A stretch of 31,111 nt of DNA, from the IMG/VR virus record IMGVR_UViG_3300010287_000003, one strand, 5' to 3'. The translations under genes and the position numbers were made by a program. The notes under the pieces were generated by a model, which saw only the letters and a list, made by a program, of their open reading frames with translations, was not told the DNA's origin and searched no databases. Each line of letters begins with the position of its first letter. The stretch's first letter is position 1. Shown here piece after piece: positions 2,452 through 31,111 of this stretch. This DNA is from a virus.

Positions 2452-3375
2452 GTGGGACTAATCAACTCGATTGACATTGCCACGGCGGCGGAGGCCATCC
2501 CGACGATTGTCGCGGCCCGCGCGCTTGGCAGCCTGAAATCGAACACGGTTCTGGCGCGGCTGGTGAACCGCAACTGGTCGAATGAGGTCGCCCAGTACGG
2601 TTCGACCGTCAAAATCCCCATGCCGGGGGCGCTGGTGGCGAATGACAAGCTCGCACAGAGCCAGGTCACGCTGCAGAACCCGGCGCTGGACTCGAAGTCG
2701 GTCACGCTAGACCGGCACAAGGAAGTGAGCTTCCTGATCGAAGACGTTGCCGCGGCGCTGAGCCGGCCCGAGCTGCTGGACATCTACATGGCAGAGGGGA
2801 TCGTCCGGATTGCAGAGGCGATGGACAGCGACATCGCGGCGCTGTTCAGTGGCCTGGTCCAGTCGGTCGACGCGACCGCCGGGCTGGACGAAGAGCACTT
2901 CCGCGATGCGCGCCGGCTGATCAACGCCGCAAAGGCGCCGATGGCAAACCGCTATGCCGTGCTGCACGAGGATGCCGAGTACGAGTTCCTCGGCATCGAA
3001 AAGGCCGTCAAGGACGACTACAAGGGCAGCCTGGGCGGGGCTGTCGCCGACGCGTGGACCGGGCGGTTCATGGGCTTTCAGACCTTCATGGACCAGCAGA
3101 TCGCGGTTGTCGAGGGCACAGATCCCGATCCGGACGTGTGCCAGAACCTGTTCTTCCACCGGGACGCCTTCGTGCTGGTGACGCGGCCTCTGCCGCGGGC
3201 GCCGGAAGGGCTAGGCGTGGTGCAGACGGTGATGGACGAGGACGGGATCGGGCTGCGCGTCACGATGGGGTACAGCAAGGATTACCTGGGTCTCCAGGTG
3301 ACGATCGATGTGCTGTACGGCGTGGAAGTGCTGCGCGAAGATTTCGGCGTTGCCGTCCGGACGCAGGGCATGTAG
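2452..3375 (+). CDS. Major capsid protein
   Basis: Frame is open from GTG 2431. GTG 2452 has AGGAGA 8 nt upstream and is the preferred start. About 307 aa, follows the scaffold gene and is followed by a strong GC hairpin. Family not verifiable without a search. Confidence 0.75.
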   Translation: MGLINSIDIATAAEAIPTIVAARALGSLKSNTVLARLVNRNWSNEVAQYGSTVKIPMPGALVANDKLAQSQVTLQNPALDSKSVTLDRHKEVSFLIEDVAAALSRPELLDIYMAEGIVRIAEAMDSDIAALFSGLVQSVDATAGLDEEHFRDARRLINAAKAPMANRYAVLHEDAEYEFLGIEKAVKDDYKGSLGGAVADAWTGRFMGFQTFMDQQIAVVEGTDPDPDVCQNLFFHRDAFVLVTRPLPRAPEGLGVVQTVMDEDGIGLRVTMGYSKDYLGLQVTIDVLYGVEVLREDFGVAVRTQGM

Positions 3376-3401
3376 CGAGCCGCCGTTGAGGTGCATGGGA
3401 T

Positions 3402-3429
3402 CGGGCGCGGTGCGAGCGTGCCGCGCCCG
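3402..3429 (+). terminator. GC-rich hairpin after capsid gene (9-bp stem CGGGCGCGG/CCGCGCCCG, 10-nt loop)
   Basis: Stem pairing checked by hand. Lies 27 nt after the capsid stop. No canonical U-tract; followed 3 nt later by the 21-bp palindrome. Confidence 0.4.
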
Positions 3430-3432
3430 GTG

Positions 3433-3453
3433 ATCTGATAACGGTTATCAGAT
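3433..3453 (+). repeat. 21-bp palindrome copy 1 (ATCTGATAACGGTTATCAGAT), intergenic
   Basis: Exact match to the four other copies. Perfect 10-bp arms around a central G. Confidence 0.97.
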
Positions 3454-3472
3454 GGAGAGAGGACAGACCAGC

Positions 3473-3739
3473 ATGGCCGAAGAGAAGAACGCGCCCGAGC
3501 CGCAGGCGCAGGAAAAGAAGGCGCCGGAGAAGAAGGAAAAGCGCGTGCGCTACTTCATCGTCAACCCCGCCGGTGCGGTGCACCAGGTGAGCCGCGAGCA
3601 CGCGCAATGGCGGCTGAAGCAAGCTGGCTGGCGCATGGCGACCGACGAAGAGATCGCACGGTATGAGAAGACGTCCGTGCAGGAAGCGGGCAAGCCGATC
3701 GCCAAGCCGCACAGCACGGAATTGCCGGAGACTGAGTAA
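3473..3739 (+). CDS. Hypothetical protein (Lys/Glu-rich N-terminus)
   Basis: Frame is open from ATG 3452, which overlaps the palindrome. ATG 3473 is preceded by GGAGAGAGG at about 10 nt. 88 aa, no recognisable motif. Confidence 0.55.
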   Translation: MAEEKNAPEPQAQEKKAPEKKEKRVRYFIVNPAGAVHQVSREHAQWRLKQAGWRMATDEEIARYEKTSVQEAGKPIAKPHSTELPETE

Positions 3740-4116
3740 TGCCTCTGACGGCGGACGGCCTGGCGCGACTGCGGCGGCTGATCGGAGACACCGGCGACAC
3801 GCCAGCGTTCTCTGATGGCGAGCTGGAGACGATCTTCCGCGACAACGGCGAGGACCTGGCACGGACGATCGTGGAGTGCCTGGACGGGCTGCTCGCCGAC
3901 GCGGCGAAGCGCGTGAGCTACCGGCAGGGGCAGAGCTTCCAAGACGACAACAAGCTGTTTGACCACCTGCTAAGGCTGCGCGCCCTGTGGGAGCGCCGGG
4001 CCGGGATGCATCGGGAGCCGGTTGAGTCCGGCGATCTGACCTATGCGTTCTACGACAAGGACGGGACGGACATCCCCGACGAGTCGTGGGACGATCTGGG
4101 CTGGATGCTGAACTGA
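3739..4116 (+). CDS. Putative head-tail connector/adaptor protein
   Basis: 125 aa, TAATG overlap with the upstream gene. Position is between the capsid and tail genes. Assignment by synteny and size only. Confidence 0.45.
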   Translation: MPLTADGLARLRRLIGDTGDTPAFSDGELETIFRDNGEDLARTIVECLDGLLADAAKRVSYRQGQSFQDDNKLFDHLLRLRALWERRAGMHREPVESGDLTYAFYDKDGTDIPDESWDDLGWMLN

Positions 4117-4481
4117 TGCCGTACCTAGACGCCTGGCGCGGGCGGCGCCACACCAGCGATGCGGCTTCACGCGCGGCTGCGGCCTGGGAACGCATCCAGG
4201 ACCAGGCGCGGGAGATCGTAATTCTGCGCGGCGATCTGGATCTACCACCGCAGACGGTGCGGCTCGAAGTAGCACAGACCGTGATCGGCGAGGTGAGCGG
4301 CGGTGCAGGCCTCGCCGCGACGCAGACGGTCGTGGTGATGGGTGTAGCCGATCATCCGACGGTGCCGGACCTGGACATTCGCCGGGGCGACCGATTCGTA
4401 ATCGACGGCGCGGAGTACCGGGTGGTGGACGTCAACCGCTACCCGGGCGAGGTGCAGGCGATGACCGAAAGGAGCCGGTGA
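4116..4481 (+). CDS. Putative head closure / head-tail joining protein
   Basis: ATG 4116 overlaps the upstream TGA (TGATG). The track ORF from 4086 would overlap the previous gene. 121 aa; assigned by synteny. Confidence 0.45.
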   Translation: MPYLDAWRGRRHTSDAASRAAAAWERIQDQAREIVILRGDLDLPPQTVRLEVAQTVIGEVSGGAGLAATQTVVVMGVADHPTVPDLDIRRGDRFVIDGAEYRVVDVNRYPGEVQAMTERSR

Positions 4482-4482
4482 G

Positions 4483-4854
4483 GTGGCGCAGTCAGCGACG
4501 ATCCGGATCGAGTGGGACCAAAGCAGTCTGCGCCAGGTGGACGCCGCAATCGTCGATTATGGCGAGCGGGTTATGACGGCCGTCCGAGCCGTGGCTGACT
4601 ACTTCCGCCCGGTGTTGGAAGACTACGCGCGGCAGAACGCGAGCTGGACCGACCGGACCGGGAACGCGCGCCAGACGCTGCACGCCTGGGTTGACGAGGT
4701 GGCGCGTGACATCGTGGAGCTGTGGCTCGGTCACGGCATGGACTACGGGCTGTGGCTCGAAGTTCGCTGGGGCGGACGGTACGCGATCGTCTGGCCGACG
4801 ATCGAGCAGCACTTGGGGCAGGTGGCGCAGATGTTGCGGGAGATCTTCGCGTGA
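4483..4854 (+). CDS. Putative neck/tail-completion protein (HK97 gp10-like by size and position)
   Basis: 123 aa, GTG start with AAAGGAG upstream. Lies in the neck gene block. Confidence 0.45.
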   Translation: MAQSATIRIEWDQSSLRQVDAAIVDYGERVMTAVRAVADYFRPVLEDYARQNASWTDRTGNARQTLHAWVDEVARDIVELWLGHGMDYGLWLEVRWGGRYAIVWPTIEQHLGQVAQMLREIFA

Positions 4855-19562: not shown

Positions 19563-20351
19563 TTAAACCTGGGCCGGGGCGGGCGCGGGTAAAACTTCGA
19601 TGGCGGCGACGACGTCTTCGAGGCTGACGCCTTTCGGCAGGAGCGCGGCGTGAATGCGAACGCCAGTCACTTCGAGCGTTTCCGGCTCCGGCTCAGACTG
19701 CGAGCGGAACGGGTAGAAGGGGCGGCCGATGACAACTTTCAGATCGTCCGACGTGGGCAGACCGAGCCGACGACGGTAGTAATCCTCGTTGTGTTGCAGT
19801 CGGCTGTACTCACGCCGCAGGTCGGCGAGTTCGCTCCGCGTCTTTGAGAGCGCATCTTTCGCCTCTTCGAGCTGCCGGAGCAGCGAGTTTTCGTACTCGT
19901 CACGACCGGTGCAGATGCTGGCGTAGCGCTGCGCCTCGGCGCGCGTCTCGCCGATGATGCGGGCCTGGCTTTCGCGCAGATCTTCGGACACCTTCAGTTT
20001 GCGCGTCAGCTCGCCGATGCGCTGGCGCTGGCGCCACCAGCTCCGCAGGGCGACGGAGCGCAGACGAGCCGCCGTCTCGGGATTGCGGCGCAGAAGCCGG
20101 TATTGCCGGTAGGCTTCGCGGTAGGCAGCGCGGATGCTTTTGCTGCTGCTGCCGACGGGCGTGGACTGGAGATGCAGTAGCGGGAAGATCACAACCCAGC
20201 GGCCACCCCAGTCGGAGTGGATGCGCATGTGCAGCAGCGTGTTTCCGCTGGGATCGATCCAGGCGGTTTCTTGCAGGTCCTTGTCGCCGATCTTGGAAAC
20301 GCGAAGATTGCGTGTGTTCGGCCTGAAGATGTTGGAGTTCTTCTCAGACAT
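19563..20351 (-). CDS. Hypothetical protein with central coiled-coil, first gene of the leftward operon
   Basis: 262 aa, AGGAG RBS. Lies downstream of a strong leftward promoter. No HTH recognised. Confidence 0.6.
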   Translation of the reverse strand: MSEKNSNIFRPNTRNLRVSKIGDKDLQETAWIDPSGNTLLHMRIHSDWGGRWVVIFPLLHLQSTPVGSSSKSIRAAYREAYRQYRLLRRNPETAARLRSVALRSWWRQRQRIGELTRKLKVSEDLRESQARIIGETRAEAQRYASICTGRDEYENSLLRQLEEAKDALSKTRSELADLRREYSRLQHNEDYYRRRLGLPTSDDLKVVIGRPFYPFRSQSEPEPETLEVTGVRIHAALLPKGVSLEDVVAAIEVLPAPAPAQV

Positions 20352-20476
20352 AATTGGCTCCTATTGGTTCTATACGGTCTCAATGGTATATCCATTCTGA
20401 ATTTCGTGCTTGGGGATGGCGCTCCTTTCGCGTGGCGGGGCTTGTGTCTGCCGCGTCATTCAGACTACTTGTAATC

Positions 20477-20505
20477 ATGATAAAAGAAGTCTCAATGAAA
20501 GTCAA
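20477..20505 (-). promoter_or_regulatory. Leftward early promoter (TTGACT - 17 nt - TATCAT on the reverse strand)
   Basis: The reverse complement of 20461-20510 reads agttgTTGACTttcattgagacttctttTATCATgatt. The spacer contains the repeated motif CATTGAGAC. Confidence 0.6.
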
Positions 20506-20525
20506 CAACTAGTCTCTATCGTATG

Positions 20526-20555
20526 TTGACAAAAGAGAACCGGGTGCTTTATCCT
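20526..20555 (+). promoter_or_regulatory. Rightward early promoter (TTGACA - 17/18 nt - TTATCC/TATCCT)
   Basis: TTGACA at 20526-20531 and a -10-like hexamer at 20549-20555. Lies about 40 nt upstream of the XRE-gene start and back-to-back with the leftward promoter. Confidence 0.55.
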
Positions 20556-20591
20556 AGAAACGAAACGGCCACTTCTAGCAAGGTGGGATGT

Positions 20592-20900
20592 ATGGACCAA
20601 TCGAGAACGGCGAGCGAACCAAAACGCAGGTTAAGACTGAGGAATCGCTTCGCGGAACTCCTGGCCGCGCACCAGCGGACGACACGCCGTAACTGGAAAT
20701 ATGAAGAGATTTCCAAAGTGACAGGAGTCTCTCCCGGTACGTTGTCTTCTTACGCGCAGAACAAGGTCACTCGATATGACGAAGTGACCGTTGTGCCGCT
20801 GATGGAGTTTTTTGGCCTCACCGACGTCGGCAAGCTTTTGGTGCTCGAAGAAGAAGAGGTCGAAGACGAGGGGCAGCAAAAAGCCGTCGCGGCGGGATAG
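20592..20900 (+). CDS. XRE-family HTH transcriptional regulator (Cro/CI-like)
   Basis: ATG 20592 with AAGGTGGGA upstream; the track ORF start 20523 would include the promoter. NWKYEEISKVTGVSPGTLSSYAQNKVTRYD is a typical HTH_XRE; the C-terminal tail is acidic. Confidence 0.75.
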   Translation: MDQSRTASEPKRRLRLRNRFAELLAAHQRTTRRNWKYEEISKVTGVSPGTLSSYAQNKVTRYDEVTVVPLMEFFGLTDVGKLLVLEEEEVEDEGQQKAVAAG

Positions 20901-21704: not shown

Positions 21705-22676
21705 CTACCCTGCGCCAAGCTGATGCTTAGCAGCAGGGTTTTGTTTTATCTGCTGCGGCTGCCAGTAGTGCAGATCGAGCAGCGCCCCGGCCTGGCGTAG
21801 ATCCGTTTCGTCCACGTCCTGGTAGTACTCCAGCGTCGTCGTGATGCTGGTGTGTCCCAGGTAGTGCTGAGTGATACGGGGAGCGACATGCTCGCGGGCA
21901 AACTTCAACCCCACACGATGACGCAAGCTGTGCGCGCCCAGGCGGCGCGAAAGCCCGGCTGTTTTGCACAGACGCCGGATGACCTCGCTGATCGCACGTG
22001 GCGAGAGGCGGGCAGAGCCACGCCACGGTGTGAAGACGTAATCCGTCGGCTTGTCGGGCCGGGCTTCGAGCCATGCGCGGATGGCGTCGGCTGTCTCCGC
22101 GTTGAAGTAGATGCGGCGGCGCCGGTTCCCCTTGCCGTTCACCAGCGCAGAACAGTTGTCCAATTCGAGGTCGCGGATTCGCAGACCTGCCGCTTCGCCG
22201 GCACGACAGCCCGAATTGGCGAGCAGGAGCACGAGCGCCCGATCGCGCGGCTTGAAGCGCGACGCGGCGAGCAACATCTCCAGCTCGTCATCCGTGGCGG
22301 CCTTGCCCTGACCAAGCGGCAGCGCAGGGCGGCGATTGACGAGGTAACCAGCGGGCGAGGCGTCGATAAGGCCAGAGCGCTCGCACCAGCGAAAGAAGGA
22401 CTTAATCATCTTGACATTTTTATAGATGGTCGCCGGAGCAAGGGGGGCCTGGACCGCCGGGCGGCGGGTGTGCGTGGCGTACTTGGTTGTGCGCGTTCGC
22501 ATCGCCGTCACGTAGGCGTCGATGTCTTCGGGCCGGACAAGGGAGATCGGTCGCTGCGGCCCGATCGCGGCGACGAACTCGGTGAGGAAGCGGCGATACG
22601 TCTGCTTCGTCTGGTCAGCGCGATCGACCAGCAGATAGCGGCGTAACGCCTCTTCGAGCGTGATGGGTTCGGTCAT
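21705..22676 (-). CDS. int: Tyrosine recombinase / phage integrase
   Basis: 323 aa with SGCRAGEAAGLRIRDL, HSLRHRVG and LGHTSITTTLEYY (the R..HxxR..Y catalytic pattern). Adjacent to the tRNA fragment. Confidence 0.9.
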   Translation of the reverse strand: MTEPITLEEALRRYLLVDRADQTKQTYRRFLTEFVAAIGPQRPISLVRPEDIDAYVTAMRTRTTKYATHTRRPAVQAPLAPATIYKNVKMIKSFFRWCERSGLIDASPAGYLVNRRPALPLGQGKAATDDELEMLLAASRFKPRDRALVLLLANSGCRAGEAAGLRIRDLELDNCSALVNGKGNRRRRIYFNAETADAIRAWLEARPDKPTDYVFTPWRGSARLSPRAISEVIRRLCKTAGLSRRLGAHSLRHRVGLKFAREHVAPRITQHYLGHTSITTTLEYYQDVDETDLRQAGALLDLHYWQPQQIKQNPAAKHQLGAG

Positions 22677-22826: not shown

Positions 22827-23972
22827 ATGGACAGTGAGAAACCTGTAGAAATCAGGGATGAAGGCACGACGGATCGCTATTTCCACGTCATGTTGAACAT
22901 GGCGGACGACGACCTCGATCCATATGAATACCGTCTGCTGGGGCACTACCGGCGCGTGTGCGGGGCGCAGAATGTGCCATGCACCGAGGGGACGCGGAAG
23001 ACCGCCGAGCGGTGCAAGATGAGCGCCGGGAAGGTGTCGGAGACGCGCGCAGCGCTGGCAGCGGCAGGCTGGATTAAGCTGGCCGAAGACGGCAACCGGG
23101 TGATCGTGACGCTGATTGATCGCATGCCCGAAAATGTTGCCCGTTATAGCGCCGATAAGCGTTCACCTGATGAACGTTCACCACATGAACGTTCTGGGAA
23201 TCGCAAAAACGTTCACCGTATGAACGTTTCGTTCACCACACGAACAAAACGTTCACCACATGAACGCAAACGTTCACCTGGTGAACGGAAGAAAGAACTT
23301 ATTAAGAAACAACCATTCAAAGAGCCAGCAAAAACATCATCAAGCAGCGATCGGGGAGATCGGACAGGCGGCGAGCAGGTTGATGATGATGGCTTCATCA
23401 GAAACCAAGCCGAGCTGATCGGTTTGAGCCGTGAAAACTGCGAGAAGCTGCTCGCGGTGGGCGTGGAGCGCGCAACGGGGCTGCTGATCGCAGCGCGACG
23501 TAAGGCGAAGACGAACCCGGCGGGCCTGCTGCTCGCGATGCTGGGCAGCGAACAGCCGCCTTCAGCGGACGATCTGTCGCTGGTGCCGCTGGCGCTGGAG
23601 CTGGGGACGACGGAGCCGGATCGGCTGGATCGCGAGCAACGGGGGCGACAGCTTCGCCAGTTTGCCGCGCGCCAGAACGGTTCTGATCTGGCGGCGAGCA
23701 CGCCGGACCGGTCCGCGCAGGACGTGTGGCAGCAGGTGATCGGGCAACTGCGGGTGCAGCTTAACCGGGCGACGTTCGACACGTGGCTAGACGGCATGAC
23801 CGCGGAGCAGTTCGCCGATGGCGTGCTGACGGTCCGCGCTAAGCACGCGTACGGGGCGGACTGGTGCAAGAAGAATCTCCAGCCGCTGGTGGACCGGCTC
23901 GCGTCCACGGCGGCCGGGCAGGCGATCCGAGTGGTGTTCGAGGCTCCGGCGTGGATGGTCGCCAGGAGCTAA
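22827..23972 (+). CDS. Replication initiator (N-terminal wHTH, iteron-encoded linker, C-terminal DnaA-domain-I-like module)
   Basis: 381 aa. N-terminus YEYRLLGHYRRVCG ... KMSAGKVSETRAALAAAGWIKL (wHTH). The internal iteron array is translated in varying frames. C-terminus DVWQQVIGQLRVQLNRATFDTWL ... GADWCKKNL ... IRVVFEA resembles the DnaA N-terminal domain. Confidence 0.65.
   Translation: MDSEKPVEIRDEGTTDRYFHVMLNMADDDLDPYEYRLLGHYRRVCGAQNVPCTEGTRKTAERCKMSAGKVSETRAALAAAGWIKLAEDGNRVIVTLIDRMPENVARYSADKRSPDERSPHERSGNRKNVHRMNVSFTTRTKRSPHERKRSPGERKKELIKKQPFKEPAKTSSSSDRGDRTGGEQVDDDGFIRNQAELIGLSRENCEKLLAVGVERATGLLIAARRKAKTNPAGLLLAMLGSEQPPSADDLSLVPLALELGTTEPDRLDREQRGRQLRQFAARQNGSDLAASTPDRSAQDVWQQVIGQLRVQLNRATFDTWLDGMTAEQFADGVLTVRAKHAYGADWCKKNLQPLVDRLASTAAGQAIRVVFEAPAWMVARS
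23161..23286 (+). repeat. Six iterons GTTCACCNNNYGAAC (putative origin of replication), followed by an AT-rich tract 23287-23350
   Basis: Copies lie at 23161, 23176, 23211, 23231, 23251 and 23272 (15 nt each, GTTCA/TGAAC inverted arms). The downstream ggaagaaagaacttattaagaaacaaccattcaaagagccagcaaaaacatcat is strongly A/T-enriched. Confidence 0.7.
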
Positions 23973-24043: not shown

Positions 24044-24808
24044 ATGATCACTTTTGCGGCAATCAATGAGAAGGGCGGGTCGGGCCGCACGACAGCGTTT
24101 GTCAACCTAGCGGCGGGTCTCGCCGTGCGGGGGAAGCGGGTGTTGCTGATCGACACCGACGAGCAAGGTCACGCGACCATTGCCTACGGCTTTGAGAAGT
24201 TCGCGGGGCTGTACGACCTGATGGTGCGCGGCGCCAAGTGGTTTGACGTGGCGATTCCGGTGGACGCCGAGCGATACGGCAGCCGGGGCCTGAGCAATCT
24301 CTACCTGGTCGGCTCGAACGTTGAGACACGGACCATCGCGCTCAACATTGACGACAAGTGGCGGCTCGCCAAGCGCCTCGCCGAAGTTTCGGATATGTTC
24401 GACGTGTGCCTGATCGACACGTCCCCCACTCCATCCGCGCTGCACAGCACGGTGTTCCTGGCGGCAGATTACATCATCTGTCCGACAGAGCTTGAGGTCC
24501 TCGGGCTGGACGGCTTGCACGAGTCGATTAAGCGGGTACAGGCGGTGCGGGTGCTGGAAGGCAAGGACCTGCGCGTCGCGGGAATTGTGCCGAACAAGTG
24601 CCGCCTGACGACGCTTGAGCACAAAGAGAACCTGGCCCGGCTGCAAGAGAGTTTCGGCGCGGCGGTCTGGCCGCCGATCACGCTGAGCATTATCTGGCCC
24701 GAGGCGATGGCTTTCGGGCGCCCGGTGATCGTCCATGCGCCCGATCACGACGCGGCGTTTTCGGTGTGGGAAATGGTAGACCGCGTGGAGGCACTTTGCA
24801 ATGGCTAG
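24044..24808 (+). CDS. parA: ParA/Soj-family partition ATPase-like protein (Walker A Lys replaced by Arg)
   Basis: 254 aa with NEKGGSGRTT (deviant Walker A), VLLIDTDEQG and FDVCLIDTSP. GGAGAGGG RBS. Confidence 0.8.
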   Translation: MITFAAINEKGGSGRTTAFVNLAAGLAVRGKRVLLIDTDEQGHATIAYGFEKFAGLYDLMVRGAKWFDVAIPVDAERYGSRGLSNLYLVGSNVETRTIALNIDDKWRLAKRLAEVSDMFDVCLIDTSPTPSALHSTVFLAADYIICPTELEVLGLDGLHESIKRVQAVRVLEGKDLRVAGIVPNKCRLTTLEHKENLARLQESFGAAVWPPITLSIIWPEAMAFGRPVIVHAPDHDAAFSVWEMVDRVEALCNG

Positions 24809-26288
24809 TAGACGGCGGCAGGGAGATCGGATCGGACCGCTCGTAGGCGAGCGTGAGACGCCGTCGGACGCGGCGCAGCGGATCTATGGCACGGTGCGGC
24901 GCGTGAAGCTGGATGAAATCCGGATCGTGGACAGCGTTCAGGTGCGGGTAGACGGGCTGGACGAAGAGCGTGTTGAGCGCTACACGGAATTTCTGCTCGC
25001 CGGTGGCACCTTCAAAGATGCGATCGTGGTCTACCAGGATGGGCCGGACCTGATTCTCGCGGCAGGGTTCCACCGGTGTGAGGCGTACCGGCGCGCACTG
25101 GAGCGCTTTGAGCCGAGTGGGGATGCGCAAGCACTGGCGCCGTTGATGGCGGAAATTCGGACCGGCGGGCATGAGGCGGCGATCGAGTTCGCTGAAGAGG
25201 ACAATCTGGCGCACGGGTTGGAACTGTCGCCACGGGATAAAAGGTACATCCTGGAGCGCCGTTTCAAGCGCGGGCATGAGTGGGCGTCGTTGAGCAACCG
25301 AGCACTGGCAGCAAAGTTAGGCGTCTCTGACATGACGATCGGCCGCTGGCGGGCGGAGATCGAAGAGAAAACAGGTGCAACAAATGTTGCACGTGGGCGC
25401 GTCGGCAAGGATGGCAAGACCTACGATGTGAGCGGGCAGCAGATCGCGGCGGCACGCGAGGCGCTGGCGAGGCTGGCTCTGCCGCCGCTTGACAAGGACC
25501 AGCGCGAAGTAGTGCGGCGGTCCATCATCACCAGCATTGACTACATCAAGATGGCGCAGTACGGCTCCGGCTGTAAATACCGTCAGTACCTGCCCTATGC
25601 GCTCGCGGTGGAGTTGGAAGCCGACGAGCCGCGTGTGTCGCTGGTGAACTGGATGCGAGGCGAGCTGCCGAAGTGGCAGGAAGAGCAGGACGAGGCGCGC
25701 CGGACCGAGGAGCAGGCGGCACGCGCGCGCCTTAAGGAACATCTGCTGGCGGTGTTGCTGCGCGGGCCATTCGACCTGACGCAGATGATTGGATTGGACG
25801 GGCTTGCTGGCTTGACTCCGCGCGCGTGCTGGGATGTGGTCCATGATCTGATGCGCGAGGGGGCGATCCGGCGCGTGTCGGATGACGTGTATGAGCTGGT
25901 GCGCGCCGCCGAGCCGAGCGAAACTGAGCCGCTATCTGATAACGGTTATCAGATGGACGAGCCGGAGCCGGAAGCGGATTGGCTCGATGCGACGGTCAAG
26001 CGGGCGGCGGGAGTGGCCCTGCGGGATAATACGTCAATCGAATACGAGAGCGACGAGGCGATGGCGGCGAGGTTAACCGAGTTACTGCGCGTCGGCTCGC
26101 ATGTCTTGTGCGACCTGGAAGATGTGCTGGAGCAGACAGCACCGGTGCCGGAGTGGGTGTTGTCGAAGCTCGATGACTTGAGCAAATTGCTACATGGTCA
26201 TCCAGGCCAAGACGACGATATTTGGAATCCCGGGCTGAACAGCTTGCTGGCCGACCTGAACACGAGAAGCAGAAGGGAGCGGGAATGA
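24801..26288 (+). CDS. ParB/Srx-domain HTH protein (ParB-like partner of ParA)
   Basis: 495 aa; its start overlaps the parA stop. KLDEIRIVDSVQVR ... LILAAGFHRCEAYRRA (ParB N-domain-like), LAAKLGVSDMTIGRWR (HTH) and a wH-like segment. The acidic linker carries the palindrome. Confidence 0.7.
   Translation: MASRRRQGDRIGPLVGERETPSDAAQRIYGTVRRVKLDEIRIVDSVQVRVDGLDEERVERYTEFLLAGGTFKDAIVVYQDGPDLILAAGFHRCEAYRRALERFEPSGDAQALAPLMAEIRTGGHEAAIEFAEEDNLAHGLELSPRDKRYILERRFKRGHEWASLSNRALAAKLGVSDMTIGRWRAEIEEKTGATNVARGRVGKDGKTYDVSGQQIAAAREALARLALPPLDKDQREVVRRSIITSIDYIKMAQYGSGCKYRQYLPYALAVELEADEPRVSLVNWMRGELPKWQEEQDEARRTEEQAARARLKEHLLAVLLRGPFDLTQMIGLDGLAGLTPRACWDVVHDLMREGAIRRVSDDVYELVRAAEPSETEPLSDNGYQMDEPEPEADWLDATVKRAAGVALRDNTSIEYESDEAMAARLTELLRVGSHVLCDLEDVLEQTAPVPEWVLSKLDDLSKLLHGHPGQDDDIWNPGLNSLLADLNTRSRRERE
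25934..25954 (+). repeat. 21-bp palindrome copy 5, inside the 495-aa ParB-like gene (encodes SDNGYQ)
   Basis: Exact ATCTGATAACGGTTATCAGAT. TCT at 25935 is in frame with the 24801 start. Confidence 0.97.
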
Positions 26289-26545: not shown

Positions 26546-26727
26546 GCGGTCCATCATGCCCCTACTGCGGGGGGGAGAATGTATGCTACCAGGGCATTGA
26601 CGACGGCCTGGGGCCTTACGGCGACTGCATCGGGGATGTGTACATCTGCGAGGACTGCGATCTAGAGTTCGAGGGACACATCATCCCGTATGGTGCGCTG
26701 CTCGATGACGAGGACGGTGAGGAATGA
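26542..26727 (+). CDS. Small zinc-ribbon protein
   Basis: 61 aa with CPYCGG ... CEDCD (two CxxC pairs) and an acidic tail. GTGA overlap upstream and ATGA overlap downstream. Confidence 0.55.
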   Translation: MSGPSCPYCGGENVCYQGIDDGLGPYGDCIGDVYICEDCDLEFEGHIIPYGALLDDEDGEE

Positions 26728-27284
26728 GTGCAAAGCTGATCGCCAAAGGCTATCCGCCTGAGTGGGTGAGCGGCGAGATCCAGAGCGAAATCTATGAACG
26801 CGCAAACTGGCGCTGCGAGCACTGCGGCGAGGAGTTTCATGAGGGCACGACCATCGCCAAGACAGCGCGCAACGCGGATGGCAAGCCGCGCATCCTGACG
26901 GTGCACCACCTGGACGGCAACCCGGCGAACTGCGACTGGACGAACCTGCTCGCTTGCTGCCAGGTCTGCCACCTGCACATTCAAGCGGTTTGGAAGCCCG
27001 GCGGCGTGCTGCCCGCGCACTGGGAGCAGCCGCCGCGGTGGATCGCCGAACGCGAGCTGCCGTATAAGCCGAACGGCCAACTCTCACTGTGGCCGCGTAT
27101 GAGGTACACGTTCATCGGCGACGCGCTGACGGCTCCGCGCCTGGTGGGATTGCAGTGCGATCCGGTTCGCCGGCGCGATGGCCGCTGCGTGGTTAGCGTC
27201 AAGATGGCAACTGCGCTGGTGGTGGATGGCCTCGGTCGAAAGTACGTGGTGCCGAGGCGCCGTTTGAGGCTGAACGAACGATGA
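26724..27284 (+). CDS. HNH endonuclease
   Basis: 186 aa. WRCEHCGEEFHEG ... LTVHHLDGNPANCDWTNLLACCQVCHLHIQ is a typical HNH/zinc-finger motif. Confidence 0.8.
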   Translation: MSAKLIAKGYPPEWVSGEIQSEIYERANWRCEHCGEEFHEGTTIAKTARNADGKPRILTVHHLDGNPANCDWTNLLACCQVCHLHIQAVWKPGGVLPAHWEQPPRWIAERELPYKPNGQLSLWPRMRYTFIGDALTAPRLVGLQCDPVRRRDGRCVVSVKMATALVVDGLGRKYVVPRRRLRLNER

Positions 27285-27589
27285 CAACTGGTAAATACAA
27301 CGACTTGAACCGGGAACTGGAAAACGTGCAGCTTCTTCCGCGACCGCCGCTTGTGTTTCACAGAACAGAGCAGCTAGAGGACTTCGGCAGGCGCGTTAAG
27401 GCGGCGTTTCAGGCTTTCGGCGTTACTGCGGAAGATGTTATCTGCGCCGTGCGTTCTGCCGGGATCAGCTTTCTGAACTTACTCCGGGAGATCGAGCCGA
27501 CACCGGCGCCGCCCACACGCCGGAAGGCACACGGTCGGCTGCGGAGCCAGCGCGAGCTGCGCGACATTAGGAGACAGCGGGGCCTATGA
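27281..27589 (+). CDS. Hypothetical protein (102 aa, basic C-terminus)
   Basis: ORF with ATGA overlaps at both ends; no motif recognised. Confidence 0.5.
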   Translation: MTTGKYNDLNRELENVQLLPRPPLVFHRTEQLEDFGRRVKAAFQAFGVTAEDVICAVRSAGISFLNLLREIEPTPAPPTRRKAHGRLRSQRELRDIRRQRGL

Positions 27590-27831
27590 GCAAGCGGCGG
27601 CGACGGACGCGGGCGGATGATGTGTTCGACCTGATCTGCCGGATCGCGCAAGAGAACTGCGGCGCGACGCCGAACTCCCGCGTGATCGCGGACGCGCTCG
27701 GGCTGAGCCAGTCGCGGGTGCAGCAATTGCTCATGCGGCTGCAACTCGATCGACGGATCACGTACATCGACCGCTACACGTACCGGGTGGAGCGGTCGGT
27801 GTGGGAGCCGCCGCCCGATGCGAGAATTTAG
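27586..27831 (+). CDS. Small winged-helix DNA-binding protein (candidate late regulator)
   Basis: 81 aa. CGATPNSRVIADALGLSQSRVQQLLMRLQLDRRITYI resembles LexA/MarR-type wHTH. It is the last gene before the late-operon leader. Confidence 0.5.
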   Translation: MSKRRRRTRADDVFDLICRIAQENCGATPNSRVIADALGLSQSRVQQLLMRLQLDRRITYIDRYTYRVERSVWEPPPDARI

Positions 27832-27840
27832 GAAGTGTTG

Positions 27841-27873
27841 ATGTGAACATGCTCAGGAAAACAGTGTTCACAT
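27841..27873 (+). promoter_or_regulatory. Inverted repeat ATGTGAACA - 15 nt - TGTTCACAT just upstream of the candidate late promoter
   Basis: The 9-bp arms were checked by hand. It ends 7 nt before the -35 hexamer and lies in the most AT-rich part of the intergenic region. Confidence 0.5.
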
Positions 27874-27880
27874 AAGTAGA

Positions 27881-27909
27881 TTGTTTATGTTCTAAAGCTG
27901 TTCTATCAT
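27881..27909 (+). promoter_or_regulatory. Candidate promoter of the packaging/structural operon (TTGTTT - 17 nt - TATCAT)
   Basis: Hexamers and the 17-nt spacer were counted by hand. The -10 is the same TATCAT as in the leftward early promoter. Confidence 0.45.
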
Positions 27910-28255
27910 TGTAGCTGAAGCGAATTGACGAGCCGCCGCAGGGTCTCCTCAAATTCCGTGCAGTAAGTCAACGGCGGCTCACTCCCTACCCCCGAACGCG
28001 GGCGGTCAGCAGTGGCCGCCCAGGGGAAGATGCTGAATGGGGGTGCCGCCGAGATCCCCGAGGCAGGAAGGTGAAAGCGGTATAAGCCCTTCCAATCCTT
28101 CGGCCCGATCGGGGCCAGGATGCAAAAAAGGCGCGCTGGCAGGATGCGTCACCCAGGGGAGTAAAGGCCAGCATAAGGCTCCCCACTCGCCGGGCTGATC
28201 ACCGGGCGGGCAGCAGTGACCAGGCGCGGCCCCTGTGCAGGCCGCTTGAGGAACG

Positions 28256-28296
28256 ACGGCACAGCGTCGAACTTTGACGTTGTGCCGTTTTCGATT
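28256..28296 (+). terminator. Intrinsic-terminator-like hairpin (13-bp stem, 7-nt loop) followed by UUUUCGAUU, upstream of terS
   Basis: ACGGCACAGCGTC-gaacttt-GACGTTGTGCCGT has 12 Watson-Crick pairs plus one G-U. A T-run follows directly. Confidence 0.55.
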
Positions 28297-28309
28297 CCGG
28301 AGCAGGCAA

Positions 28310-28420
28310 GTGATCGGAGTCTTCATCCTGGCAGTGTTCATCCTCGTGGTGTCGGCGATCGTGCAGCTCGCAGCGCCGGGCACGATGGATGACCGTCTGT
28401 TCGCGGAGCCGGGGCGCTGA
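28310..28420 (+). CDS. Possible 36-aa hydrophobic micro-protein (not in ORF track)
   Basis: GTG 28310 has GGAG 8 nt upstream and encodes VIGVFILAVFILVVSAIVQLAAPGTMDDRLFAEPGR. Its TGA is 2 nt before the terS ATG. Confidence 0.3.
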   Translation: MIGVFILAVFILVVSAIVQLAAPGTMDDRLFAEPGR

Positions 28421-28422
28421 TC

Positions 28423-28824
28423 ATGGCCCCGCGGCGGCAATGGACCGACGAAGAAAAGGCGGAGATTCTGGCCGCGCTGGACGCCAATCAAGGCAACGTC
28501 AAGCGGACGGCCCGGCAGTGTGGCGTGCCGATCAGCACGCTGCGCGGCTGGGTGAAAGGCCGGGGAACCAACGCCGGAGTGGCGAAGTTGCGCCCCGAAA
28601 AAAAGGGCGACCTGGCCGACGCGCTGGAAGAAATCGCCTGGAAGATTGTGGAGCTGCTGCCGGACAAGCTGGAGACGGCGGAAGTGCGGGAACTGGCAAC
28701 GCTGCTGGGCGTGTCGCTGGACAAGCTGCTGGTGCTGCGCGGCAAGGCGAACAACCGGACCGAGGTCAGCGGCGTGCAGATTTACGTCCCCGACAACGGG
28801 CGGCAGAGTAACCAGGTGGCATGA
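28423..28824 (+). CDS. terS: Terminase small subunit (HTH type)
   Basis: 133 aa. N-terminal HTH (QGNVKRTARQCGVPISTLRGWVKG). ATGA overlap with the large terminase. Confidence 0.7.
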   Translation: MAPRRQWTDEEKAEILAALDANQGNVKRTARQCGVPISTLRGWVKGRGTNAGVAKLRPEKKGDLADALEEIAWKIVELLPDKLETAEVRELATLLGVSLDKLLVLRGKANNRTEVSGVQIYVPDNGRQSNQVA

Positions 28825-30284
28825 CAGAGATCCGGCCCCAGGCGGCGCAGGAACGGTTCTTAGCGTCGCCGGCTGATATTGTGATTTACGGCGGGGCGGC
28901 TGGCGGCGGCAAGACGTGGTCACTGCTGGTCGAACCGGTCAGGCACATTAACAACCCGGCCTTTCGCGCGGTGCTGTTCCGGCGGGCATACCCGCAGATC
29001 ATCAATCCGGGTGGGATGCACGACGAAGCGCAGAAGCTGTACCCGCTGCTGGGCGGCTCGGCGACACAGCCATCCAGCGGGATTACGTGGACGTTTCCTA
29101 GCGGGGCGGTGGTGCGGTTCGCGCACCTGCAGCACGACAAGTCGGTCTACGACTGGCAGGGCGCGCAGATTCCGCTCATCGGCTTTGACGAGCTGACGCA
29201 CTTCAGCGAGGCGCAGTTCTGGTACATGCTGAGCCGCAACCGCTCATTATCCGGCGTTCGCCCATATGTTCGGGCGACGACGAACCCGGAGCCGAACTGG
29301 GTGGCGCGGCTGCTGGACTGGTGGATCGGCGAGGACGGCTACGCGATTCCGGAGCGGGGCGGGCATATCCGTTGGTTCGTGCGCTTCGGCGGCGAGCTGG
29401 TGTGGGCCGACAGTCCGGACGAGCTGACGAGCAAGTATCGCGGGGTCGAGCCAAAGAGCCTGACGTTTATCCCGGCGCGGCTCGAAGACAACCGCGTGCT
29501 GATGGACCGCGATCCCGGTTACCTGGCGAACCTGCTGGCGCTGCCGCTGGTCGAACGCGAGCGACTGCTCGGCGGTAACTGGAAGATCCAGCCGAGCGGC
29601 GGAAAGGTGTTCAACCGGGGCTGGTTCGAGATCGTGGCGCCCCAGGATGTGCCGCGCGGCGGCGTGGAGTGCCGGTTTTGGGACCTGGCCGCGACGGAGA
29701 AGAAGCTGAAAGGCAACGATCCGGACTTTTCGGCGGGCGTGAAGGTTCGCAAGGTAGAGGACCGGTACTACGTGATGGACTGCATCGCCGTCCAGGCCGG
29801 GCCGGCGGAAGTGGACCGGCTGATCATCAGCACGGCGCTACGCGACAGCGAGCAGGCGCGGCGCAGCGGGACGCGATACATGGTCCGCTGGGAGACGGAG
29901 CCGGGCAGCGCTGGGAAGCGTGAGACAAGCCGCCTGGTGAAGATGCTGGACGGCTACGACGCAAAGGGCGAGAGGCCGACCGGTGACAAGCTGACACGGG
30001 CGAAGGCGCTGAGCGCGCAAAGCGAACAAGGGTTCGTATTGCTGGTGGCCGGGGCGTGGAACGAGGGCTGGCTGACGCACATGCACCACCAACCGGACTG
30101 GGACCATGACGACATTATGGACGCGAGCAGCGGGGCGTATAACGCGCTGGTCAATCCGGGTGCGGAGTCGGGTTTTGTGGACTGGTACGGCGAGGCGCCG
30201 GAGCCGGTGGAGATCGAACCGGTGCGCGCAGACGACGAGATCGCCGATATGTTAGCGCGCTACGAGGCGGAGATAGATGGCTGA
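28821..30284 (+). CDS. terL: Terminase large subunit
   Basis: 487 aa. Walker A YGGAAGGGKTW, Walker B LIGFDELTHF and a C-terminal nuclease-like half. Followed by the portal gene. Confidence 0.9.
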   Translation: MTEIRPQAAQERFLASPADIVIYGGAAGGGKTWSLLVEPVRHINNPAFRAVLFRRAYPQIINPGGMHDEAQKLYPLLGGSATQPSSGITWTFPSGAVVRFAHLQHDKSVYDWQGAQIPLIGFDELTHFSEAQFWYMLSRNRSLSGVRPYVRATTNPEPNWVARLLDWWIGEDGYAIPERGGHIRWFVRFGGELVWADSPDELTSKYRGVEPKSLTFIPARLEDNRVLMDRDPGYLANLLALPLVERERLLGGNWKIQPSGGKVFNRGWFEIVAPQDVPRGGVECRFWDLAATEKKLKGNDPDFSAGVKVRKVEDRYYVMDCIAVQAGPAEVDRLIISTALRDSEQARRSGTRYMVRWETEPGSAGKRETSRLVKMLDGYDAKGERPTGDKLTRAKALSAQSEQGFVLLVAGAWNEGWLTHMHHQPDWDHDDIMDASSGAYNALVNPGAESGFVDWYGEAPEPVEIEPVRADDEIADMLARYEAEIDG

Positions 30285-31111
30285 GATTAAGAGCCTGTTC
30301 GACCGCGATGAATTTAAGCCGTTCAAGGCGCAGTGGGACAGGCGACAAACCGAACTGGCGCGCCGCTACGACTATTACACCGGCGACGTCTACAACCGGC
30401 ACAAGTACCGCTTTGGCTGGTGGCTGGGGCAGCGGCTGTATCGCGGCATTCGCCCGCTGTTTCTGCCGTTCGCGCGGGCGGTGGACGTGGACGCCGGGAT
30501 CATCCCCGGCGGGTGGGCGTTTAAGCAGGAAGCGCCGGACGCCTGGCGGACAGCCCGCAAACAACTGTTCGCCTGGTCGGAGTGGGCGACGCAAGGCGTG
30601 CTGTACGTGCATTACGGGGCGATCTTCGGCGTGAGCGGGCTGAAGGTGGCCGACCTGCGCGAAGAGAAGAAGGTCGTGATCGCGCCGGTCGATCCGCGCA
30701 AGTTCATGCTGGTGCGCGGGAGCGGCTACAGCCAAGCGCCGATGATGGCGATCACGATTGAGCAGCGCGAGGGGGCGGACGGCAAGCCTTACGAGTACGG
30801 CGAGGTGATCACGCCGGACAGCATCACGACCTTCCGCAACGGCCAGCCGGAAGGCTTCGAGAACCGTCCGGAGAGCTATCCGAACGCGCTGGGCGCGGTG
30901 CCCTATATCGAAGTGCGGCACATCGAAACGGGCGAGGACCTGGGCGAGTGCACGTTCCAGAAGCCGATGTTGATTTTGGACGAGCTGAACGAACTGGGTA
31001 GCTATCTGGCCGACATTATCAAGAAGCATGCCGAGCCGCAGACGGCCATCTCCGGCGCCGCCAAGAGCGACCTGAAGAAGGGCGATAACGTGTGGTTTCT
31101 GCCCGAGGGCG
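30277..31111 (+). CDS. Portal protein, N-terminal part (runs off the window end; continues at base 1..626 through the overlap)
   Basis: ATG 30277 overlaps the terL stop (30282-30284). The frame is open to the last base. It is not in the ORF track because it has no stop inside the window. Confidence 0.85.
   Translation, partial: MAEIKSLFDRDEFKPFKAQWDRRQTELARRYDYYTGDVYNRHKYRFGWWLGQRLYRGIRPLFLPFARAVDVDAGIIPGGWAFKQEAPDAWRTARKQLFAWSEWATQGVLYVHYGAIFGVSGLKVADLREEKKVVIAPVDPRKFMLVRGSGYSQAPMMAITIEQREGADGKPYEYGEVITPDSITTFRNGQPEGFENRPESYPNALGAVPYIEVRHIETGEDLGECTFQKPMLILDELNELGSYLADIIKKHAEPQTAISGAAKSDLKKGDNVWFLPEG

Follow-up and report, generated by a model that had tools for sequence, protein, structure and literature searches.

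Introduction

Lambda Q-PR'-tR', lambda N/nut, HK022 put and Tn916 T1/canT are precedents for an RNA leader that we analyzed upstream of the packaging genes of a phage, and none of them is homologous to it. The leader lies within a non-coding span, positions 27832-28309, of IMG/VR virus record IMGVR_UViG_3300010287_000003, a stretch of 31,111 nucleotides (nt) that is referred to throughout as the window (features lie on its + strand unless stated otherwise). It follows the gene for an 81-amino-acid (aa) winged helix-turn-helix (wHTH) protein, precedes the terminase gene terS, and ends in three hairpins, H1, H2 and H3, that recur in related loci (designated below by L numbers). These hairpins constitute a new conserved RNA motif, outside Rfam, that is set within a familiar phage regulatory layout, and we lean towards reading the region as a control region for the late operon.

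The layout resembles that of lambda Q-PR'-6S-tR', in that a regulator gene lies directly upstream of a dedicated late promoter, a short terminated leader, and a terminator that stands before the late operon. In lambda, the Q-binding element is situated between the -35 and -10 hexamers; at the window locus, repeats that are predicted to bind protein (TGTTCTA) likewise lie in or next to the promoter. In contrast to lambda, the regulator here is a winged helix similar to the N-terminal domain of LexA (LexA-N) with no match to the Q family in family and fold searches, and no pause element was seen by eye. Moreover, whereas lambda 6S RNA needs no conserved hairpins to our knowledge, the leader described here possesses conserved, covarying ones. 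The locus also recalls lambda N/nut, since a small protein with an N-terminal arginine-rich stretch is encoded beside a hairpin that has an invariant loop and lies upstream of a terminator. However, the lambda N protein is intrinsically disordered, and its boxB site is a 5-base-pair (bp) stem with a GNRA-like pentaloop that is accompanied by boxA; in the window, the protein adopts a winged-helix fold, the 9-bp stem of H1 closes a loop of 7 nt, and we identified no boxA.

In Gram-positive phages, RinA, ArpU and LtrC are late activators encoded just upstream of terS. The window shares with these systems a small DNA-binding regulator gene before terS and a controlled promoter between the two, but the wHTH protein has no homology to the activators, and we know of no description of a RinA, ArpU or LtrC system with a long, conserved, structured leader and a terminator. 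A further parallel comes from HK022 put, which consists of two stem-loops in the nascent RNA, downstream of the promoter and upstream of terminators; the ~70-nt element forms an RNA triplex and antiterminates without any phage protein, by way of the beta' zinc-binding domain (PMC9378689). H1 and H2 (~60 nt), which lie just before H3, resemble put in layout only; unlike in HK022, a regulator gene is always linked to them, which argues for a protein partner, and factor-free action would make H3 pointless. In Tn916, a terminator (T1) insulates genes that are harmful when transcribed by readthrough, and a cis-acting antiterminator RNA (canT) allows the element's terminators to be passed without any of its proteins (PMC11658703). 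The window phage likewise carries co-directional rep and par genes upstream of its late operon, but the order of parts and the host phylum differ.

Results

A covarying three-hairpin core ends the leader

The original prediction described a non-coding leader of about 590 nt before terS. The region indeed lacks codon periodicity: in segments starting between 27781 and 28201, the spread in GC content among codon positions is at most 0.15, as compared to a genome median of 0.35, and these segments form one of the two longest aperiodic runs of the window (the other comparable run is 20281-20760). The last part of the predicted span, 28310-28420, is nonetheless a gene (see below), leaving a non-coding span of 27832-28309, or ~478 nt. 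The + strand from 27915 to 28296 folds with a z-score of -3.07, and none of 100 shuffled sequences was as stable; the corresponding value for the - strand is -1.65. The inverted repeat, the promoter hexamers, the first leader hairpin, the GCGGCC/GGCCGC hairpin, the 19-nt repeat, the CCCAGGGGA pair and the terminal hairpin were all found exactly where the prediction had placed them.

The part of the leader that is common to relatives is a core of ~110 nt, which extends from 28186 to 28291 in the window. H1 (28186-28210) pairs CUCGCCGGG with CCGGGCGGG in a 9-bp stem that closes the 7-nt loop CUGAUCA (28195-28201). Across lineages the stem varies from 7 to 9 bp and the loop reads CUGAUCA/C in 15 of 17 elements (CUGAUCC in L125 and L155), while the stem itself covaries, being CCUGCGG/CCGCAGG in L133 and CCUCCGG/CCGGAGG in L155, with an A-U pair in L120. 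H2 (28226-28245) consists of GCGGCC and GGCCGC arms flanking a loop, and its stem is 6-7 bp long across lineages. H3 (28256-28288, or to 28291 with the U-run) has the form of an intrinsic-terminator hairpin, with a 13-bp stem, the loop GAACUUU and a following UUUU; a CGACG/CGUCG mini-hairpin lies within its 5' arm. The H3 stem covaries as well, with GACCCA/UGGGUC in L123 and a wholly different sequence in L170.

Alignment of 12 distinct cores with MAFFT shows that 94.5% of the cells assigned to stems are paired and that seven pairs have changed on both sides; none of 500 shuffles reaches the real value, and sliding the 3' partners lowers pairing to 34-43%. Unguided prediction with RNAalifold yields the same three hairpins. 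When diverged members were added (alignment A4, which was fitted to the model, contains one spurious reverse-strand row and therefore leans towards structure), 93.6% of cells were paired and 21 of 29 pairs had changed on both sides, against 33-45% paired in the slid controls. In this alignment, both-side changes affect six of the seven pairs of H2, which reads GCGAGGC/GCCUCGC in L170 and GCUGCUC/GGGCGGC in L177; in these two loci the sequences of H2 and H3 are wholly different from those of the window, but the helices are retained, as are the U-run and the H1 loop. G.U pairs predominate at four stem positions of A4 and would be A.C mismatches on the other strand, which assigns the structure to the + strand and sets it apart from a symmetric DNA site. 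H1 and H2 provide, with support from covariation, two adjacent stem-loops upstream of a terminator, as in put.

Conservation in relatives and a covariance-model search had both been proposed as checks on the leader. H1-H3 covary among relatives, and no Rfam 15 family matches anywhere in the window at gathering thresholds (nor does ARAGORN call a tRNA or tmRNA). Searching 27700-28500 against Rfam at E <= 10 returned only miRNA and EBER2 noise, and Rfam searches of 12 related loci gave just two matches, the tRNA of L134 and, at another locus position, a Chloroflexi-1 match below threshold. By blastn, the region matches none of 50,697 GenBank phages, and our literature searches turned up no description of the H1-H2-H3 motif. 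A catalogue of unnamed candidate RNAs upstream of terminases in IMG/VR has been published (PMC10690425), and its entries could not be mapped to the leader element.

Two observations concern the H1 sequence. CTGATCA recurs exactly where the micro-ORF stops and terS starts (GCTGATCATGG, 28417-28423); pairing of the H1 loop with this site is not conserved in L125 and L179, and we regard the match as a coincidence. In L169 (2881-3900), a contig from a metagenome-assembled genome (MAG), the H1 5' arm is disrupted (CCUCAUGAUCA), the terS frame is broken and no gene is called over 1.1 kb; this locus gives the impression of a prophage in decay, with the element degrading along with it.

The core accompanies the wHTH gene and not the terminase

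Neither blastn nor nhmmer matched the leader in 82 IMG/VR loci picked by similarity to the window's TerL or TerS, and a covariance model (R1) gave no hit below E = 0.1 in 97 loci of TerL relatives; the element therefore does not follow TerL. The first alignable leaders came instead from TerS homologues (61-98% identity) and their contigs, and an exact-pattern scan built from their alignment, when run over IMG/VR and JGI metagenomes, yielded L136/L166, L145/147/158/162, L155 and L157/161, while homologues of the wHTH protein led to L169, L170-173 and L177. From the metagenome scan, 23 of 31 loci were discarded as chance matches in coding sequence.

A wHTH homologue lies upstream in every lineage with a readable, alignable upstream gene, namely the window, L120, L123, L125, L129, L133, L136, L145, L147, L157/161, L162, L169, L170 and L177; as exceptions, the similarity is weak in L134 and the contig of L155 is too short. 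The genes on the other side change. In the window, the packaging module comprises a helix-turn-helix terS and a Terminase_6N/6C terL, whereas L161 has Terminase_2 and Terminase_3, L136 an unrelated terS with a TerL_nuclease-type TerL, and L147 another Terminase_6N without a tblastn match to the window TerL; the downstream gene is ParB-like in L155 and encodes an N6_N4_Mtase DNA methyltransferase in L170. The cores of L136, L145, L155 and L157 are nevertheless 72-81% identical in nucleotides to that of the window, although none of these loci has a tblastn match to its TerL. Conversely, the TerL of L120 is 99.8% identical to the window's but its core is just 83% identical, with a stretch from the H1 3' arm to H2 that is identical to that of L157; in L129 the core is 96% identical and TerS 83%. 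Together, these comparisons show that the core is linked to the wHTH gene and independent of terminase type. The arrangement that the original prediction had compared with lambda (a small wHTH gene, a promoter, a long structured leader, an intrinsic terminator and late genes) is conserved in ~12 lineages. Its proposal of the wHTH protein as a candidate activator or antiterminator gains from the same data: because the wHTH gene accompanies the RNA element while terminase genes change, the protein is the natural candidate for a regulator or partner of the leader module.

In L170, the wHTH gene is separated from the core by three cassettes in tandem (2780-4495). Each comprises a near-identical leader of ~110 nt (GTTACAT...TCGTATCATGCAGTCATGGATTGGACCG), one open reading frame (ORF) and a hairpin with a T-run; the ORFs encode 86, 154 and 154 aa, have no Pfam match, and look like inserted moron genes.

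A winged-helix protein with a predicted operator and promoter

The wHTH gene (27586-27831) encodes an arginine-rich N-terminus, KRRRRTR. Family searches with its product gave weak matches to LexA_DNA_bind and DtxR-N, as well as a match to HTH_24, and family and fold searches revealed no match to the Q family. An AlphaFold model (pLDDT, the predicted local distance difference test score, of 91) shows a three-helix winged helix of the order H-H-H-beta-beta, whose nearest folds are PefI, LexA-N and MntR, with PefI the best and itself marginal (E = 0.009). Protein databases contain at least 93 members of the family, in which G26, P29, W73 and P76 are invariant and which has a C-terminal S-x-W-x-P-P-P motif. 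One homologue, P0020 (165 aa), carries an extra N-terminal domain of ~85 aa with weak precomputed matches to FaeA and Sigma70_r3, which may hint at a partner function.

Directly downstream of the gene, an inverted repeat pairs ATGTGAACA (27841-27849) with TGTTCACAT (27865-27873) across a 15-nt spacer, ~47 nt upstream of the -10 hexamer, and is probably the operator. Its TGTYC half-sites are kept in relatives that have a similar recognition helix (SRVxQL), while lineages with a YSTVYHH helix possess a different repeat, of the TTATTCGATAA type, at the equivalent place. The repeat thus differs along with the recognition helix between wHTH subfamilies, as expected if the wHTH protein binds there. 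GTTCAC is common to the operator and to repeats at 23160-23290; the latter are rep iterons built on CGTTCACC..ATGAACG and constitute a different site.

Reading the sequence directly, we find a promoter-like TTGTTT-17-TATCAT (27881-27886 and 27904-27909) that agrees with the consensus at eight of 12 positions, and this low match explains its absence from an automated promoter scan. Its weak -35 hexamer fits dependence on an activator, and a direct repeat, TGTTCTA (27888-27894 and 27899-27905), overlaps the spacer and the -10 hexamer. The TTG of the -35 and the -10 (TATCAT, TATCCT, TACCAT or TAYACT) are kept across the lineages read, and in nine lineages the first GC-rich helix begins 16-23 nt past the -10. 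This arrangement gives the best indirect support for the predicted promoter and for the position of the RNA 5' end.

The 5' part of the leader is assembled from exchangeable modules

Upstream of the core, the first leader hairpin, P1 (27930-27980), can be written as GAGCCGCCG / CGGCGGCUC and has arms GAGCCGCCG at 27930-27938 and CGGCGGCTC at 27972-27980. It is kept in L120 and L129, and an analogous GC-rich first helix is found in L136, L145, L133, L123 and L155. P2 (27990-28026) follows as CCCC...GGGCGG-loop-CCGCCC-A-GGGG; its stem is kept while its loop varies, the arms being GGGCGG/CCGCCC in L129, GGGGCGGC/GCCGCCCC in L125 and GGGCGGC/GCCGCCC in L136. A third hairpin module (28039-28093), common to L120, L125 and L129, presents the conserved loop GAAAGCGGYRUAA on a stem that covaries (GGAAGG/CCUUCC, AGAGC/GCUCU, AGGGC/GCCCU and AGGU/ACCU), and a pseudoknot involving its GGGG, GCCGCC and CCCC segments, read by eye, is possible. 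The window further contains an extra 85-nt module (28100-28185) composed of GGCCC-GAUCG-GGGCC, an A-run, GGCGC...GCGUC and GGGGAG...CUCCCC. This module is missing in L120, L125 and L129 and present in L157/L161, which have a different terminase, a distribution that marks the leader as a recombinational mosaic. The short leaders of L133, L123, L145 and L136 consist of one 5' helix and the core only. Together, these alignments indicate that the 5' 250 nt of the leader are a mosaic of exchangeable hairpin modules.

P2 holds the first copy of the 19-nt direct repeat and of CCCAGGGGA, and the extra module holds the second CCCAGGGGA; the latter sequence occurs only twice in the window (28019 and 28152), against 0.17 copies expected. 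The two copies of the 19-nt repeat, at 27999 and 28203, are identical at 17 of 19 positions. As a functional repeat, this sequence fails in relatives, where it is not conserved; only GGGCGG recurs, as arms of two helices.

In L134, a genuine tRNA gene (942-1014; 38.9 bits in Rfam) fills the 5' part of the leader and directly precedes the core (1021-1128). ARAGORN gives an odd four-base anticodon loop call for this tRNA, and the H1 loop of L134 is GGACG-like in place of CUGAUCA. Four wHTH-linked leaders of a different kind, ~350-450 nt in length, were also seen (L175, 3750-4160; L176, 2155-2560; L178, 240-700; L168, 2105-2600). All four have a terminator-like hairpin, which in L178 comes immediately after the -10 and in the other three overlaps it, and a motif like a tRNA acceptor and T-arm (for example, GCGCTGGGTTCGACCCCCAGCGGCGCGAC) occurs in the leaders of L175, L176 and L178. 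Rfam and ARAGORN recognize nothing in these four core-less leaders, which could represent a second class of leader or tRNA fragments of an attP-like kind.

H3 is terminator-like and coincides with a mosaic joint

In our own scan, H3 is the cleanest terminator-like hairpin with a T-run on the + strand of the window (-24.5 kcal/mol with context), and the combination of a GC-rich hairpin and a U-run is kept, with compensatory changes, in 17 elements. It escaped an automated terminator scan; part of the U-run is taken up by a G.U extension of the stem, which is the probable reason. The ribosome-binding site (RBS) that serves the first late ORF starts 7 nt past the U-run in the window and no more than 25 nt after H3 in the other lineages read. 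Since this leaves no room for a promoter, all late transcripts must cross H3.

Between the wHTH gene and the H3 loop, L180 and L181 have the same sequence as L123; inside the 3' arm, both change over to another micro-ORF and late module, which makes H3 a recombination junction where the early and late genome halves meet. The starts of several Logan contigs fall 160-184 nt ahead of terS, at different bases within H3 or shortly before it, while contigs that arrive from the left end 141, 247, 259, 282 and 444 nt after the wHTH stop codon; many contigs span the site. The mosaic switch explains why many de Bruijn contigs break at or close to H3. We considered whether the cluster of starts marks a physical end or cos site and judged this improbable, given the switch of L180/L181 inside H3 and the scatter of left-hand ends; we take the breaks for branch points in the assembly graph, not for termini of the genome.

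Immediately downstream, an RBS (GGAG, 28299-28302) precedes a 36-aa membrane-type micro-ORF (28310-28420, GTG start) that encodes VIGVFILAVFILVVSAIVQLAAPGTMDDRLFAEPGR. Compared with L125, 36 of 111 nt differ, 20 of them at codon position 3, and the frame is intact; substitutions in the membrane segment exchange one hydrophobic residue for another, and the C-terminus PGTMDDRLFxEPGR is kept. This pattern of substitution indicates that the micro-ORF is a real gene. In five lineages, the first ORF after the leader encodes a hydrophobic peptide of 33-42 aa with one membrane segment, and the peptides are non-homologous; micro-ORFs at the same place lie at 4877-4978 in L170, ~2030-2150 in L180, ~4155-4285 in L175 and ~700-825 in L178.

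Genome setting

The original prediction spoke of a genome, a fair word for the window: it is a circular assembly with a 123-nt terminal overlap (1-123 and 30989-31111), corresponding to a genome of ~30,988 bp. Its genes lie mostly on the + strand, the exception among those upstream of the leader being a tyrosine integrase gene (21705-22676, - strand). There follow a rep gene that encodes a 381-aa protein with a DnaA_N domain (22827-23972), genes for ParA (24044-24808) and a ParB-like protein (24801-26288), and, two ORFs upstream of the leader region, an HNH endonuclease gene (26724-27284). Six copies of palindromic iterons of the CGTTCACC(N2-3)ATGAACG type lie at 23160-23290, inside the rep gene, and are probably a replication origin within its own initiator gene, as in lambda O. 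The integrase, ParA and the ParB-like protein together mark the phage as temperate, and it may be kept as a plasmid prophage.

Between the HNH and wHTH genes, a 102-aa ORF (27281-27589) shows almost no codon-position GC periodicity, is absent in relatives and was left uncalled in the gene prediction for L119 and L120; possibly it does not code for protein, in which case the untranslated zone upstream of the wHTH gene would be longer. Beyond the leader and the micro-ORF, the first recognizable late gene encodes a TerS-like helix-turn-helix protein of 133 aa (28423-28824; Pfam HTH_Tnp_1 and HTH_28), followed by terL (28821-30284; Terminase_6N/6C, phrog_979); an SPP1-type portal is also encoded. 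Relatives retrieved by TerL from IMG/VR and GTDB are no more than 61% identical and none of them carries a similar leader; the nearest belong to Chloroflexota MAGs and point to a host in that phylum. GATC occurs 259 times in the window, against 135 +/- 10 expected from dinucleotide-preserving shuffles.

Discussion

The reading that we favor on balance, judging from sequence comparison, is that the region is a control region for the late operon (packaging and structural genes) of a phage that is temperate and may be plasmid-like, and that it acts through a regulated, terminated leader. Because its three hairpins recur near the wHTH gene in phages whose packaging enzymes are unrelated, the unit resembles a portable late-gene switch more than a packaging site. 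A promoter at 27881-27909, flanked and overlapped by TGTTC-type repeats, would be governed by the adjacent 81-aa winged-helix protein. Transcription would start near 27916 and give a structured leader of ~375 nt, composed of exchangeable 5' hairpin modules and an invariant 3' core of H1 with its CUGAUCA loop, H2, and H3 with its U-run. H3 would block polymerases arriving from the co-directional rep, parA, parB-like, HNH and wHTH genes, along with most of those from the late promoter, such that late-gene expression would depend on readthrough of H3. Without H3, these upstream genes would be transcribed into the packaging genes, a problem in a lysogen or plasmid prophage.

We infer transcription of the region, termination at H3, the role of the wHTH protein and antitermination from these comparisons; H3 would be overcome by nut-, put- or Q-like antitermination or by simple leak. 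H1 and H2 would be the likeliest site at which a readthrough factor recognizes the nascent RNA, in a nut-like manner if a trans factor such as the arginine-rich wHTH protein is needed, or in a put- or canT-like manner if the RNA acts alone. Since H1 and H2 are part of any transcript arriving at H3, a factor-free antiterminator would cancel the insulation, which favors a trans factor. A bolder proposal, which we hold to be rather improbable, is that H1 and H2 represent a new class of nut/put-like processive-antitermination RNA, that the ~80-aa wHTH protein binds both its DNA operator and the CUGAUCA hairpin, and that regulator, promoter, RNA and terminator together form a portable late-gene switch, recombining at the terminator onto unrelated packaging modules in temperate phages of Chloroflexota-like hosts.

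Several points weigh against late control through a regulated leader. The model of the 81-aa protein indicates a generic DNA-binding winged helix, and the arginine-rich arm is weak in the homologues of L147 and L133. Promoter and terminator were judged by sigma-70-type rules, which may not be those of the host. Inspection by eye, with no computation run, revealed no convincing -10-like pause hexamer in approximately +1 to +25 and, in the alignments, no competing (antiterminator) pairing against H3. Alignment A4 leans towards structure, as noted above, and four loci with a wHTH homologue (L175, L176, L178 and L168) lack the core and have another long leader. Finally, a pure cis antiterminator would defeat H3 for early readthrough as well, which argues for an additional trans factor.

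Five other explanations are weighed here, from the likeliest to the least likely. The strongest, if a fairly unlikely one, holds that the region yields a stand-alone small RNA (sRNA), either from promoter to H3 or as a processed ~110-nt H1-H2-H3 species, that acts in trans on targets in host or phage through its exposed CUGAUCA loop while late genes are expressed by leak through H3. The core does resemble a terminator-ended sRNA in its invariant loop, covarying stems and variable 5' part, and the CUGA at the loop start fits the YUNR U-turn motif. The slot between promoter and H3 hosts RNA genes, to judge from the tRNA of L134 and the T-arm-like motifs of the L175, L176 and L178 leaders, and the contrast between core and TerL identity in L120 indicates that the core is swapped between phages as a cassette. 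However, no target was found (TGATCAG occurs eight times against three expected, but GATC itself is about twofold above expectation genome-wide), and a cis element would be expected to show both the linkage to a regulator gene and the fixed position, no more than 25 nt upstream of the first late RBS. That the leader is a ligand- or tRNA-sensing attenuator, of riboswitch or T-box type, which decides whether H3 forms, strikes us as unlikely. Such an attenuator would account for a long structured leader with a terminator directly before the regulated genes, and the GAAAGCGGYRUAA loop and possible pseudoknot of the 28039-28093 module could be read in the same way; yet the putative aptamer modules are dispensable, being missing from L133, L123, L145 and L136, no conserved pairing that competes with H3 was seen by eye, and Rfam returned no match even at E <= 10. 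A little less likely again is the notion that the core is a homology patch for recombination between early and late modules with no function beyond termination. The identity of L180/L181 and L123 up to the H3 loop, the breaking of assembly contigs there, and the failure of core identity to track the identity of flanking genes all agree with this notion, but a patch has no need of compensatory changes, and L170 and L177 keep three helices and the H1 loop with different H2 and H3 sequences.

The remaining two explanations place the function in DNA. The original prediction had offered the repeats as TerS recognition sites of a cos/pac region, to which the H3 palindrome could be added as the cleavage site, and the position directly upstream of terS, the HNH endonuclease gene two ORFs upstream and the Logan contigs that start 160-184 nt before terS gave this idea some appeal. 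We now consider it very improbable: one core precedes Terminase_6N, Terminase_3 with Terminase_2, and TerL_nuclease modules, and in L155 and L170 it precedes a ParB-like or N6_N4_Mtase gene; relatives do not keep the 19-nt repeat as such; contig ends are scattered over ~140-440 nt beyond the wHTH stop, where strains are mosaic, and many contigs span the site; and G.U pairs make the structure strand-specific. Terminase_6N combined with an SPP1-type portal is, in addition, typical of headful packaging. Lower still we rank a DNA-level element centered on the GATC of CTGATCA, either a PapI/PefI-type switch that responds to methylation or a hairpin that serves as a single-strand origin. PefI is the best structural match of the wHTH model, some homologues have weak FaeA matches, and GATC both falls within the loop and is enriched ~2-fold in the genome; the PefI match is marginal, however, and reflects the generic winged-helix fold, the loop is CUGAUCC in L125 and L155 and the motif is missing in L134, and a duplex GATC site needs no covarying stems around it.

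The switches that turn on late genes are understood in a handful of model phages (lambda Q, HK022 put, Mu C, P2 Ogr and RinA) and are essentially unknown in phages of uncultured, high-GC environmental hosts. Against this background, the locus is a compact and comparatively well-supported candidate, in which an RNA motif outside Rfam is joined to a candidate partner family of at least 93 members and to a terminator-like hairpin that doubles as a recombination joint. If H1 and H2 are indeed an antitermination signal, they would add a new class of RNA and protein to a very short list and supply a small part for the control of readthrough; otherwise, the motif would still serve as a practical marker of the early/late boundary for annotating metagenomic phage contigs.

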